Position numbers and translations under genes: made by a program. Positions 825 to 4,705 of a stretch of 13,926 nucleotides of DNA are shown here, in pieces. How positions within the stretch are numbered: the stretch's first letter is position 1; each line of letters starts with the position of its first letter. The notes beneath the pieces are model-generated. The model ran no database searches. It saw nothing but the letters and a program-made list of their open reading frames with translations, and was not told the origin of the DNA. Origin of the DNA: Promethearchaeota archaeon (GTDB lineage: Archaea > Asgardarchaeota > Lokiarchaeia > Sigyniarchaeales > SOKP01); contig JAFGOA010000084.1 of NCBI GenBank assembly GCA_016926735.1, positions 1 through 13,926 of the forward strand, given 5' to 3'.

Positions 825-1856
825 TTAAAATGGAGCAAAAGTAGTTATAATATTATCATTTGGACTAGATTTTAGTATTTTCACATTTATATTTTTTCCA
901 ATATAATCTTCAGAAAAATCTAAAGCTTTATTTATTAGAATTTTTGTTGAAAATTCTTCATTTATTTTTCCTATATATTCATTGTTCCATCTCCCTTTAC
1001 TCATAATTTCAATAGGAATAATGTCTCCTTCTTTAAATTCTAATTTAAATAGTTTTCTTTTATGTATTCCAAAATCTCTTGGTCCAAGTTTCAATTTTAT
1101 ATCATATTTTTTTTCTAGATAGGAAAGTTGCTTATAAAAATACCCCCAAGTCTTTGGTTGAATTTTTTTCAATTTTCTCCCTGTTTTATAGACAAGATAT
1201 TTCTGAATTCCAATTTGAATTTTTTTTTTTGAATATCCATTATCTCTAAGATTAACTACATATTTTATAATTTCCTCTATATCAAGATCATTCTGACTTG
1301 GAAACCATACTGGTGCAATTAGTAAATTTATTTTGGATTTTAAAATAGAATTAAAATTTTCTAATAAAAATTCAATATTATAATCCTTACTTGCGGTTAG
1401 ATATTCAGCCAGTTTTTTATTAAATGTATTTAAACTTATATTTATTCTTGTTAATCGTGATCTTTCAAGTTTTTGAATAATTTCTTGATTTAGAAGTAAA
1501 CCATTCGTTTGCATTGAAATTGTTGTAATCCCTTCAATTTGCCATAATGATTCTAATAAAAAAAATAGATCTTTATATAGAAGTATTTCTCCATAAGGTG
1601 CAATATGGACTTCAATGTTGTTCTTTCCTTTGAACTCAACAAGATCTCGAACTTTTTCCAAGAGAAAATTTGGATCTACAATGAAATTTGAAAAATATCC
1701 ACCACATTTCACAAAACAATATTTACATTTTAAATTACATAATGTTATTGGTTTAATCTCAATAATATTTGTTCCTCTATCAATGATACCTATAAAATCC
1801 AAACCAAAAATTGGTATTGCCGAATCTTTATTTATAGTTTTAATTTCATACCCCAT
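825..1856 (-). CDS. Radical SAM protein with C-terminal TRAM-like domain (archaeal COG2100-like family)
   Basis: Canonical CxxxCxxC (CNLKCKYC). N-terminal IPIFGxxxxGIIDRGTNIIEIKP signature, QTNG and RINISLN motifs. Beta-rich C-terminal KEGD...GRW...IGK...VKI TRAM-like segment. Confidence 0.88.
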   Translation of the reverse strand: MGYEIKTINKDSAIPIFGLDFIGIIDRGTNIIEIKPITLCNLKCKYCFVKCGGYFSNFIVDPNFLLEKVRDLVEFKGKNNIEVHIAPYGEILLYKDLFFLLESLWQIEGITTISMQTNGLLLNQEIIQKLERSRLTRINISLNTFNKKLAEYLTASKDYNIEFLLENFNSILKSKINLLIAPVWFPSQNDLDIEEIIKYVVNLRDNGYSKKKIQIGIQKYLVYKTGRKLKKIQPKTWGYFYKQLSYLEKKYDIKLKLGPRDFGIHKRKLFKLEFKEGDIIPIEIMSKGRWNNEYIGKINEEFSTKILINKALDFSEDYIGKNINVKILKSSPNDNIITTFAPF

Positions 1857-1875: not shown

Positions 1876-2949
1876 TTAAATTTTATATCTCAAAATTGCG
1901 ACAATAGATCCTAAACCCTCTAATTGCTCTCCAGCAGGATGATTGGTATTTAAAATTTTAAATTCTCCTCCAATCTTTTCAAGACTATCGATCATTTCCT
2001 CAATTCTGATTTTTTTTGTTTTTGAGGATCCTCTTATTTGTGTATCAGAAATAAGTAATTGTTTAACAGCTCCCATATTCAATGCTTTAGTGATTTCATC
2101 AAATCCTATTGCAATCAAATCAGGATCTTTGCTTAATAAAGTCATTATTTCTTCGATTCTTTCAATTTCCTCAAGAGCTTTAATTTTATCCTTCAATTTT
2201 ATTAATTCATTTGATTTTAAAATTTCATAGATTGCACTTTCAGTACCAGAGCTTGCTAATAAACTTCTTAGTTTACTGGAATAATTCATTTTTGATTTCT
2301 CTTTTAAGAATTTAATTAAATGATCTTTTATACTACCTGGGCCACAAACAATAATAAGATCTATATTTTCATTAGAGACATTTGTTTCAATAATAGTTTT
2401 AATCTCTTCAAAAAATTCATTGATATATTTATTTCTCATTGATTGTTCATATCGTTTTCCAGGTATATTTTTATTAATTGTCGCTATTTTATTTCTACTA
2501 TAGTTTGTTATTAAAAAAATATTAGAAAGTCCAGATTCAACCGCTATGATAAATAAATTAAAAGTTGATGATAGTTTTGAAATTTCTTTAATTCTTTTAA
2601 GATCCTGTTTCATCCATTTTTCTTTTTTGATCATAAGTTTTTGATTTATTTCTATATTAAAAGTATGATAAGAACCAAAACTTACGAAATCATCAGGACC
2701 TTGGATTATTCTTCCTTTTATTCTTAACCGATTTGAAAATTCATGAAAGGATATATCTTCCACATCTAATGTTAAATCCATAAGTCTTCTTTCACCAGAA
2801 GTACCTTCATTAATAATTACTCTTCTTTGAGTAAGAGCTCTTATATAGTCTCCTTTTGAAATTATGTTATAAAGAGTCCATAAATCATTTAAATTTTCAA
2901 CATTAACGGTAATTTCTCCTTGTTTTAGATTTTCTTCAAGAATTTTCAT
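1876..2949 (-). CDS. pelA: Pelota/Dom34 mRNA surveillance and ribosome rescue factor (eRF1 family)
   Basis: ENLNDLWTLYNIISKGD, FHEFSNRLRIKGRI, GSYHT, IPGKR, GPG, GAVKQLLISD and HPAGEQLEGLGSIVAILRY motifs. ATG at 2949 (MKILEE) preferred over TTG at 2958. Confidence 0.96.
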   Translation of the reverse strand: MKILEENLKQGEITVNVENLNDLWTLYNIISKGDYIRALTQRRVIINEGTSGERRLMDLTLDVEDISFHEFSNRLRIKGRIIQGPDDFVSFGSYHTFNIEINQKLMIKKEKWMKQDLKRIKEISKLSSTFNLFIIAVESGLSNIFLITNYSRNKIATINKNIPGKRYEQSMRNKYINEFFEEIKTIIETNVSNENIDLIIVCGPGSIKDHLIKFLKEKSKMNYSSKLRSLLASSGTESAIYEILKSNELIKLKDKIKALEEIERIEEIMTLLSKDPDLIAIGFDEITKALNMGAVKQLLISDTQIRGSSKTKKIRIEEMIDSLEKIGGEFKILNTNHPAGEQLEGLGSIVAILRYKI

Positions 2950-3046
2950 ATTTATCAAGTGATTTAGTATCTACTTATAGTAAAATAAAGTAAAAGTAAG
3001 AAAATAAGATTATTCTTAACTAAAAAAATCAATTTAACATAACATA

Positions 3047-3075
3047 AAAAAAAAAGAAAAATATAACAAAAAAAA
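3047..3075 (-). terminator. Oligo-T terminator downstream of the 52-aa ORF
   Basis: Long A runs on the + strand (about 3047-3061 and 3068-3075) are T tracts directly after the TAA at 3077. Confidence 0.55.
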
Positions 3076-3076
3076 T

Positions 3077-3235
3077 TTAACCTTGTTTTTCAAGAGCTGC
3101 CTTTACTTTTTCAAGCTCTTCTTGTCTTTTCTTCTTCTCCTCTTCTCTTCTCTTTAATTCTTCTTGGTCAACCTTATCTAAGGACACACCTTTTTTTATT
3201 TGGTTTTTTAGCTCATCATCAAGTTGTGGCGTCAC
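3077..3235 (-). CDS. 52-aa microprotein with a WH2-like motif followed by an E/K/R-rich single alpha helix (not in the ORF track)
   Basis: Manual translation GTG(3235)..TAA(3077): MTPQLDDELKNQIKKGVSLDKVDQEELKRREEEKKKRQEELEKVKAALEKQG. Shine-Dalgarno-like AAGGTG lies 8 nt upstream, oligo-T tracts follow the stop, and the ORF is purine-rich with higher GC than its flanks. Confidence 0.82.
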   Translation of the reverse strand: MTPQLDDELKNQIKKGVSLDKVDQEELKRREEEKKKRQEELEKVKAALEKQG

Positions 3236-3559
3236 TCTTTTAACACCTTTTATTTATTAATTTTAAATTTTATATTGAAAATTTATATTCTAATTTTTAA
3301 TTACCAATATAATAATAGTTTCATTATTAAAGGTTTTCGAAATTTAAGATACTACTATATATAGATGATTGATTCTTTTATCCTTGAAAATTATGTTAAT
3401 AAAAATCTATACAAATCTTCAAATGTTTTAAATAATTTCTTAAAACGAAATTTCCTTATTTTCTTTTAACAAGAATAACATCATGAAGAATTGTAAGGTA
3501 TTTATCTTCGATAGTTTAACTTGATTTAAAATTAGTTTATAGACGTTATAATTTTTTAA

Positions 3560-4705
3560 TTATAGATTAAATTCTTTTTTGAATAATTCTATAGGTATTT
3601 TTTCAGTAATTTGTCTATGCTCTTCTTCTCTAAAAGGTAAAGTTTCTATGATAAAAGCATCCAATTGTAAATTTTTAATTTCTTTAAGTATAATATCCTT
3701 AATTAAAATATAATAAGGTAATTCGATTGCATTATCTATAAGATTTATAAGATTTTCTGATAACTTGAATTTTTTTATGATTGTATCACATAATATCTTT
3801 AAAGAATTTTTATTTCCCTCAACAATTCCATATATCAATAATCCTTCATCAGTTATTTCTTCATAATCCTTCTTTATATTTTTAGCTCTCTGTAAATAAC
3901 GATTTTTAAGTTGATAATAATCTTTAGCTATAATCGAACAAAAATGAAGTTTAAGATTTTTAGTTTGTGCTGATATTTTATTTATCAATTCTAAAGCACA
4001 GATTTGACTATTTTTTACAGAAGCGATTGTACCTTCTTCTAGCTCAAATCCTCTTTGTTTTAAAGAGTTACTATTTGGAAAACAATATTCGAATTCATTA
4101 AGATTTATAAAAGCTGCACCAATATTATCTAAATATAAAATTAATTTTTCTAAATATTTTAAATATTGTTCATTAGGAATGATTGGTATTTCTATCCCAG
4201 CAGAAATGCCTGAATTTAGAGCATATCTAACACAATTCCAATTATCTTGAGCAGGATGAAATCTAATTTCATCAAGACCAGCTTTAGCTAATTTAAGGGC
4301 TAAATCTTTATTAAATGATATTCCATTAGAATATAGATGTATATGAAATATATTTCCTTTTCTTTCTTTCAAAAATTTAATATATTCAATTGTCTTGGAA
4401 ATATTTTCTTTAGTTAAAGGTTCTCCACCGGTAATGCTTATTCCTTTAGCATTTATATTATCTAATTCTTTTATAATATCTTCCTTTTCAGATATTCTGA
4501 GTTCATTTATATATGAAATGTTCTTATCACGCCTTTTATCAGAAATAGGGCAATACCAGCTACAATGATCAGGTTTTTGGCATTTTCCATTTAAAAATAA
4601 TACTCCTTTCACACCTCTTAAACACAATTGACACCCTAGAGGAATTCCCCTTCTTTTTAAATAAAAATTACCCTCTATTGATTTTATTATCCTATTTTTA
4701 TTCAT
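3560..4705 (-). CDS. Radical SAM protein (archaeal COG2108-like, PFL-activating-enzyme related)
   Basis: PxGCxxCxxG N-terminus, cluster motif CQKPDHCSWYCP, GISITGGEPL, FHIHLY, AGLDEIRFHP, GIEIP, FINLNEFE and HFCS motifs. Confidence 0.9.
   Translation of the reverse strand: MNKNRIIKSIEGNFYLKRRGIPLGCQLCLRGVKGVLFLNGKCQKPDHCSWYCPISDKRRDKNISYINELRISEKEDIIKELDNINAKGISITGGEPLTKENISKTIEYIKFLKERKGNIFHIHLYSNGISFNKDLALKLAKAGLDEIRFHPAQDNWNCVRYALNSGISAGIEIPIIPNEQYLKYLEKLILYLDNIGAAFINLNEFEYCFPNSNSLKQRGFELEEGTIASVKNSQICALELINKISAQTKNLKLHFCSIIAKDYYQLKNRYLQRAKNIKKDYEEITDEGLLIYGIVEGNKNSLKILCDTIIKKFKLSENLINLIDNAIELPYYILIKDIILKEIKNLQLDAFIIETLPFREEEHRQITEKIPIELFKKEFNL

Follow-up and report, generated by a model that had tools for sequence, protein, structure and literature searches.

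The closest relatives of eukaryotes known so far are the Asgard archaea, and Loki-type lineages among them are not known to have formins or WASP-type activators. As far as the available main text of the literature on Asgard actin regulation goes, the actin regulators named for these organisms are profilins and gelsolins only (bioRxiv 10.1101/2025.11.30.690169; PMC13716822; PMC12050087), the WH2-like motif is described as a gelsolin linker only, and no free-standing WH2 or thymosin gene is described. Here, a DNA stretch of 13,926 nucleotides (hereafter the window; contig JAFGOA010000084.1 of a Promethearchaeota archaeon, assembly GCA_016926735.1) was analysed, whose minus strand carries a gene for a 52-aa microprotein. 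An initial annotation, made from the letters alone, had proposed this protein as a stand-alone WH2-like actin regulator and knew of no other such free-standing gene, a gap that the literature above bears out. The gene is real and under purifying selection, and in the searches made its family does not extend beyond a single order of Asgard archaea. Its product is a free-standing copy of a module of about 45 residues, the first half of which appears WH2-like at the profile level, although the protein falls outside the Pfam WH2 and Thymosin families.

This module consists of a three-turn amphipathic helix (L5, L9, I13), an extended linker G-V-x-L-x-K-V and a long charged helix, the latter having an ER/K-type charged middle and a small hydrophobic face at its end (L41, V44, L48). 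Like WH2 (PF02205; N-WASP structures 3m3n and 2vcp), it appears to have a three-turn amphipathic helix followed by a glycine and then by L-x-K-V, its profile aligns with the WH2 of N-WASP over 17-21 residues, and it is found on its own, in tandem arrays and next to other domains, being predicted as poorly ordered within a larger protein. Unlike WH2, it does not match the Pfam model, the window protein has D-K in place of the basic pair of LKKV, and many orthologues end the motif with P instead of V. Moreover, the module always comes with a strongly conserved charged helix of 28 residues, whereas WH2 motifs occur without it. Beta-thymosins (PF01290), which are free actin-monomer sequestering peptides of about 43 aa, resemble the microprotein in being free-standing and of similar size (about 50 aa) and in the succession of an N-terminal helix, an LKKT-like linker and a second helix; the language-model clusters described below add to this likeness as leads only. 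By eye, the orthologues of the sister family (MSD..EI.EHDKSKM.KV) also look thymosin-like beside what we take to be the thymosin sequence. Nevertheless, there is no Pfam match, the second helix of the microprotein is much longer, ER/K-rich and unrelated in sequence, and the lineage is archaeal, no full-length eukaryotic homologue being present among the 10 of 76 library matches that were fetched.

Closer in terms of organism is the linker of the two-domain gelsolins (2DGel) of Asgard archaea, for which the available text gives LVDV/LKDV in Loki 2DGel and LRRV and LKHV in Thor and Heim, an Asp of the Loki2DGel linker binding Ca2+ at the actin interface (PMC9433394; bioRxiv 10.1101/2025.11.30.690169). 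The microprotein would share with it the presumed target, as well as an L-x-x-V motif with an acidic residue (L-D-K-V in the microprotein). However, the gelsolin has a four-residue motif placed between two folded domains, whereas the microprotein is a whole helix-linker-helix unit on its own; its acidic residue stands at motif position 2 instead of 3, and there is no sequence relation beyond the motif. Finally, trypanosomatid profilins are described as carrying an internal WH2-like motif (PMC10907219). They recall the Asgard fusions of about 250 aa presented below, in which profilin and a WH2-like element also share one polypeptide; but in Asgard archaea the module is separate and repeatable after the profilin (up to four copies, in protein P0094), with a further C-terminal domain behind it.

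The open reading frame (ORF) was found just as first described: it is the one minus-strand ORF at its position, its translation agrees letter for letter, the AAGGTG ribosome-binding site and the oligo-T after the stop are both present on the minus-strand reading, and the upstream intergenic space, announced as about 320 bp, measures 324 bp. The word "unannotated" fits less well, since the exact protein is already present in NCBI; all orthologues looked up carry only the label "hypothetical protein" (e.g., WP_371806818.1). A translated search of 61 related genomes, including the window's family (f1), a sister family (f2) and two further families (f3 and f4), returned small frames of 48-66 aa, with E-values from 1e-25 to 1e-9 across f1, from 1e-11 to 8e-7 in f4, down to 8e-6 in f3 and weaker in f2, while nothing better than E 0.07-4.9 was obtained in five genomes belonging to further orders within the class. 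From the relatives, 49 loci were extracted, 48 of which have an open frame of 48-59 aa; L048, which had no tblastn match, was left out, and the remaining 48 were aligned to give a profile (A1). At E ≤ 0.001, this profile matched 73 of 301 genomes sampled across the phylum, the source genome among them. Far from lacking homologous ORFs in relatives, the microprotein thus has orthologues in 63 of 68 genomes of the window's family and in 7 of 7 of the sister family. Only 2 of the 225 other genomes were matched, both marginally (E 5.6e-4 and 8.1e-4) and inside frames of 267 and 744 aa. Scored against this profile, of which it is itself a member, the window protein reached 89.6 bits (E 4.7e-25), and it is 39-98% identical to the other 47 members. 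It aligns with the profile over its full length and carries the K36/R37 pair as well as L9, I13, L19, E33, E40, L41, K43 and L48, as do members of this Loki-order family of modules of about 50 aa. Judging from the names borne by two orthologues, this order contains Ca. Lokiarchaeum ossiferum and Ca. Harpocratesius repetitus.

Translation signals and codon evolution agree with a functional gene. GGTG lies at most 20 nt from the start in 30 of the 48 loci, and any Shine-Dalgarno-like word in 35. As had been anticipated, the ratio of nonsynonymous to synonymous substitution rates (dN/dS) is below 1, with a median of 0.36 (Nei-Gojobori method, NG86; 126 pairs with 0.1 < dS < 1.5), a value that is crude because the coding sequence is K/E-rich and AT-rich. 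In a library of 1.84 billion representatives, the A1 profile matched 76 proteins at E ≤ 0.001, 37 of them at 1e-10 or better and most of them about 50 aa long. Outside the actin-bearing phylum, no homologue was found in these searches except two WH2-repeat proteins (P0125 and P0102).

Structure prediction with AlphaFold2 (AF2) on the A1 alignment gave a helix over residues 3-15, a coil over 16-23 and a second helix over 24-51, with a mean predicted local distance difference test score (pLDDT) of 86.7 and a predicted template modelling score (pTM) of 0.39; by blocks, pLDDT was 87-93 from residue 21 to residue 50 and 72 at the final two positions. In this model, the helix-linker-helix anatomy holds. 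A Foldseek search of the 52-aa model against the PDB returned 0 matches at E ≤ 10. Across the 48 orthologues, L9, I13, L19, E33, E40, L41, K43 and L48 are at least 90% conserved. The first three of these are predicted actin-contact positions, and their conservation speaks for a WH2-type unit.

The likeness to WH2 emerges at the level of the family profile. When A1 was run against 177,635 distinct PDB sequences, 8 matches were obtained at E ≤ 10, the top one being the N-WASP tandem-WH2/actin construct 3m3n_W (E 0.0037; 20.2 bits, to which three stretches contribute 8.4, 7.6 and 5.1 bits). Positions 8-24 of the profile (LkkeIkkgvkLqkVdee) align there to LLDQIREGAQLKKVEQN and its two sister repeats. 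A second N-WASP entry, 2vcp_D, was also among the matches (E 0.38), and the other 6 were to the C-terminal half of the profile, for which the search yielded coiled-coil noise only. Among the 10 fetched library proteins, 8 are Asgard-type module proteins, and the two outsiders match profile positions 7-26 only. One of them, P0125 (998 aa, E 9.4e-4), passes the Pfam WH2 model with 40.8 bits over a span of five tandem motif copies; the other, P0102 (762 aa, E 4.5e-8), reaches 18.1 bits, under the cut-off. On the same side, L035 of family f4, the best-scoring orthologue, has a canonical LKKV and obtains 13.1 bits with Pfam WH2 (E 0.079), also under the cut-off. With regard to their architecture, P0125 has a signal-like N-terminus, ankyrin repeats and the five tandem WH2 motifs, and looks like a bacterial actin-targeting effector, while P0102 combines FHA, PP1-binding and two SAP domains with at least 7 IKAGVQLR-type repeats. 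Language-model features, whose scores count as no more than leads when under 0.9, point in a related direction. With the window protein as query, the first cluster to carry a Pfam family was 52% Thymosin (score 0.85, 162/256 features); for L047, an f2 orthologue, thymosin beta-4 families were the best among the named clusters (0.85, 180/256, and 0.84). In form, and in form only, the microprotein also resembles a beta-thymosin: it stands free, falls within about 40-55 aa, and runs from an N-terminal helix through an LKKT-like linker (here L-D-K-V) to a C-terminal helix.

The module recurs in larger proteins. In 52 clusters, mostly of about 250 aa, it follows an N-terminal domain, with a sequence of the type …LREELMxGLIDFFKKGGKLEKPDExDxKRREKERKxRMEELEKVL…. 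This N-terminal domain scores 19.2 bits with Pfam Profilin, under the gathering cut-off of 25, and the precomputed assignment PF00235 is present on 2 of the 52 clusters. The AF2 model of one fusion shows a profilin domain with pLDDT 77-88 over residues 1-120, for which Foldseek places profilins of Odin and Loki in all of its first five ranks; in four of these cases the structure was determined with rabbit actin. The top match, 5zza_P, has E 1.4e-9, a target template modelling (TM) score of 0.88 and a root-mean-square deviation of 1.8 Å at 26% identity, and 64 matches reach E ≤ 0.001. At the level of the model, the domain is structurally confirmed as an Asgard profilin. The module itself is modelled with low confidence in this fusion (pLDDT 38-62), as expected for a peptide that folds on its partner. 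Protein P0094 has a profilin followed by four modules. Besides, a conserved C-terminal domain (…TDYIYDDFQLL…) stands after the module or modules of the profilin fusions, with a helix over residues 219-237 in the model. Tandem arrays are an architecture known for multi-WH2 proteins, and sister-family proteins of 479-497 aa, which match no Pfam family, consist of 9-11 tandem modules, many units reading LLxEIxxxxxLKKVD. An exact look-up of two ten-repeat proteins among public records gave no match, probably owing to a different start. Taken with these arrays, the fusions to profilin are what would be expected of a WH2-type unit and represent the strongest indirect evidence for it.

From this evidence, we infer actin as the partner, as well as every detail of the binding mode. 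That the microprotein binds actin monomers in a WH2/beta-thymosin-like manner is, in our judgement, the likeliest single reading, at about even odds. In such a mechanism, the L-x-K-V stretch would run along actin subdomain 1, and the conserved second helix would reach further up the monomer and contact it there as well, in the way beta-thymosin does. The microprotein could buffer, sequester or deliver actin monomers, while the profilin-module fusions and the arrays of 9-11 copies might hand over or gather several of them. A fitting partner is encoded in the source genome (3.88 Mb, 238 contigs), as had been expected of an Asgard genome: the best of its four actin-family genes specifies a 381-aa Lokiactin, which scores 443 bits with Pfam actin and 541 bits against eukaryotic actins in the PDB. 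This Lokiactin is near-identical to eukaryotic actin over the segments that we take to line the WH2-binding cleft. As a whole, the interpretation as an actin regulator is partly supported.

Several results weigh against actin binding. The scoring against Pfam WH2 that the initial annotation had called for was negative, with no row for the window protein at E ≤ 10 (gathering cut-off 23.1 bits) and 0 matches genome-wide at the same threshold. Pfam Thymosin (cut-off 24.8 bits) gave noise only in 5 genomes (11.7-13.9 bits), elsewhere than in the small gene, and no row at E ≤ 10 for two f2 orthologues, and NCBIfam and Pfam scans of the microprotein returned nothing significant. The E-values of 3m3n_W and P0125 are sums over several near-identical weak stretches, so that each is in effect one short match. 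The pattern L...I..G..L.K[VIT] occurred once, in the window ORF, among 42,602 stop-to-stop frames of the genome, versus 1-4 times in residue-shuffled frames; the resemblance consequently rests on conservation and on profile-level evidence and not on a single match. In the reciprocal direction, a narrow hidden Markov model built from the five near-identical WH2 repeats of P0125 gave a top E of 1.4 against the same frames, and the window ORF was absent from its 39 rows at E ≤ 100. Conservation tells a similar story, since K36 and R37, the only invariant residues over the 48 orthologues, both lie in the C-terminal helix, as do E33, E40, L41, K43 and L48, a part without WH2 counterpart. Position 22 is V, P or L, with P in many orthologues (LQKPD). 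Conservation centred on the WH2 positions, as initially anticipated, was therefore found in part: there are two centres, the stronger being the C-terminal helix, with L9, I13 and L19 among the most conserved residues. Of the other positions singled out, G16 is kept in f1 and f4 and replaced in f2 by a stretch two residues longer, and V22 gives way to P or L in many orthologues. Likewise, the claim of a WH2-like motif stands at the profile level, where the N-WASP WH2 is the best PDB match, and does not extend to the Pfam WH2 model. In addition, no actin, profilin or gelsolin gene adjoins the small gene among the 10 window ORFs and 20 neighbours in 8 sister loci that were scanned, and the module is also attached to Ras-like GTPases, leucine-rich repeats and ribbon-helix-helix domains, which would fit any portable binding peptide. 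These last fusions show the module to be a portable peptide and do not point specifically to actin. It could be a binding or spacer element, made of an amphipathic helix and a charged single alpha-helix, for a partner other than actin; in its free form, the protein would compete with or regulate the binding to that partner, and its WH2 likeness would be a convergence, in a K/E/L/I-rich proteome, on the widespread pattern of an amphipathic helix plus L-x-K-V. We regard this explanation, the main rival, as possible but doubtful. It would account for the charged C-terminal helix being the most strongly conserved part, for the unmatched WH2 and Thymosin models, for the chance frequency of the bare motif, for the coiled-coil nature of 6 of the 8 PDB matches, and for a module placed on domains as unrelated as a Ras-like GTPase, leucine-rich repeats, a ribbon-helix-helix and a zinc ribbon. 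It leaves unexplained, however, that the only outsiders among the fetched library matches are WH2-repeat proteins, that the N-WASP WH2 stands at the top of the PDB list, and that the fusion partner is repeatedly profilin, an actin-monomer binder.

Gene order suggests another role, in translation or ribosome rescue, for instance together with pelota, aEF1-alpha or a ZPR1 chaperone. Pelota and ZPR1 both act with EF1-alpha. In the window, pelota is the next gene downstream, 118 nt away. A same-strand pelota directly follows the microprotein gene in 36 of 48 loci, with a median gap of 147 nt; these loci belong to f1, f3 and a part of f2. The remaining f2 loci have a CDP-archaeol synthase upstream and a convergent ZPR1 as neighbours, and those of f4 have WD40 and MoxR-type ATPase genes. 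ZPR1 (zinc-finger/jelly-roll) stands tail to tail with the small gene in 5 of 5 sister loci (L047, L049, L050, L051 and L053), and the CDP-archaeol synthase is on the same strand in 2 of these 5 (L047 and L051). We nevertheless consider a role in translation improbable. Oligo-T tracts and the 118-nt gap separate the microprotein from pelota, the convergent ZPR1 is not co-transcribed with it, and the flanking radical-SAM gene is syntenic too, so that the block may be just conserved gene order: indeed, the succession radical-SAM, pelota, microprotein, radical-SAM, nucleotidyltransferase is kept throughout the window's family. Furthermore, the microprotein matches neither TMA7 nor any Pfam or NCBIfam translation family, and translation proteins occur in none of the module fusions. 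As for a chance open frame in an AT-rich spacer, without function, the small size, the GTG start and the missing family match would agree with it, but a frame that stays open and alignable in 48 of 49 loci, the profile matches throughout the window's family, the low dN/dS, the retained Shine-Dalgarno-like word and the presence of the same module within larger proteins make this scarcely conceivable.

If the microprotein does bind actin monomers as proposed, it would be a new variant of the WH2/beta-thymosin-type peptide with a conserved second helix of its own. A free peptide of this anatomy, together with the fusions and arrays, would then extend the actin toolkit of pre-eukaryotic cells by monomer buffering and perhaps by nucleation, and would point to a concrete candidate for where the WH2 motif came from. 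A more far-reaching reading, which we consider rather unlikely, is that the module corresponds in archaea to the actin-monomer-binding WH2/beta-thymosin peptide of eukaryotes, of which it may even be the evolutionary precursor, and forms a third class of actin regulator besides profilins and gelsolins in Loki-type Asgard archaea; the free form of 50 aa would in that case be a monomer buffer, the profilin fusions delivery factors and the arrays of 9-11 copies filament nucleators. Should the partner be other than actin, the module would still be an undescribed and widely reused binding unit of this lineage.

Table 1. Positions of the microprotein gene, its parts, its neighbours and related genes. 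Coordinates without prefix refer to the window.
Feature	Position	Strand	Basis or remark
Microprotein coding sequence, 52 aa, GTG start	3077..3235, TAA included	minus	ORF list and direct reading
Shine-Dalgarno-like AAGGTG, with an 8-nt spacer (3243..3236) before GTG	3249..3244	minus	direct reading
Start GTG; stop TAA	3235..3233; 3079..3077	minus	direct reading
T-rich tract past the stop: T8 at 3075..3068, then T4-C-T10 at 3060..3046	3046..3075	minus	possible archaeal terminator
AT-rich upstream spacer, 324 bp, presumably with the microprotein's own promoter	3236..3559	minus	sequence reading
Codons of residues 3-15: N-terminal amphipathic helix (L5, L9, I13), WH2-like	3191..3229	minus	AF2, conservation and N-WASP WH2 alignment
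Codons of residues 16-23, G-V-S-L-D-K-V-D: non-helical linker with LKKV-like L19-D-K-V22	3167..3190	minus	AF2 and conservation
Codons of residues 24-51: second helix, long and charged, with an ER/K-like stretch before L41, V44, L48	3083..3166	minus	AF2 and conservation
Pelota	1876..2958	minus	Pfam eRF1_1/2/3; TIGR00111 250.6 bits (cut-off 177.65)
Two radical-SAM genes	825..1856; 3560..4705	minus	
Profilin and module fusions	P0094, 387 aa; L054:1833-2585(-); L055:1554-2327(+); L112		
Tandem-module proteins	L057:1480-2919(-); L058:1474-2940(-); L059:1480-2955(-); L060:1483-2946(-); also P0053, P0095		
Ras/Arf-like GTPase fusions	L062:1671-2726(-); L063:1371-2441(+); L111:1279-2247(-)		Pfam Ras 112.8 bits
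Leucine-rich repeat fusions	P0110; P0119; L108:601-1656(+)		
Helical protein, 267 aa, genome G276	L106:1180-1980(+)		
Three further actin-family genes of the source genome	C125:8999-10081; C100:44094-45065; C202:7157-8254		Pfam actin 278, 224 and 149 bits; one in a 517-aa frame

Termination at oligo-T is generally known in archaea, which is the ground for the possible terminator in Table 1, and the T-tracts would argue for a microprotein transcript apart from that of pelota. The length of the upstream spacer follows from the end, at 3560, of the upstream radical-SAM gene on the same strand. The two radical-SAM genes, which are different from each other, flank the pair of pelota and microprotein. 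The 10 window ORFs that were scanned include these two genes, pelota, a nucleotidyltransferase, CutA1, a TrmB-like protein and an archease, and three ORFs are without family. TMA7 (PF09072), which had come into consideration because pelota is a neighbour and the C-terminal half is charged, gave 0 matches at E ≤ 10 in 5 genomes including the source. Besides the small gene, the source genome contains a second match on contig C33, in a 313-aa coiled-coil protein (E 0.24), which was judged to be low-complexity noise.

Among the other module proteins, the Ras/Arf-like GTPase fusions begin with the GTPase, followed in turn by the module, a ribbon-helix-helix and another module-like stretch, which is weaker and not significant. 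On Lokiactin co-immunoprecipitation, the available main text names Lokiactin, profilins, gelsolins, an ARF GTPase and BAR proteins only (bioRxiv 10.1101/2025.11.30.690169; PMC13716822), and the word WH2 is absent from the text of PMC13716822. In the leucine-rich repeat fusions, the repeats precede the module, which is followed by a ribbon-helix-helix or zinc-ribbon tail, and short proteins of 119-188 aa (L109, L110 and P0113) associate a ribbon-helix-helix with the module. One profilin-fusion protein, from genome G018, is publicly labelled "Hodarchaeota" and "Thorarchaeota", whereas by the genome search G018 belongs to the window's family, within the order of Ca. Lokiarchaeum; the submitters' taxon labels on this protein look unreliable. 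Outside the Loki-type order, in another family of the phylum, the helical protein of genome G276 has an internal AELKASILSGVSLKKVDEE that is very WH2-like; this protein matches no Pfam family, and the profile aligns with it over positions 1-33 only (E 5.6e-4 genome-wide).

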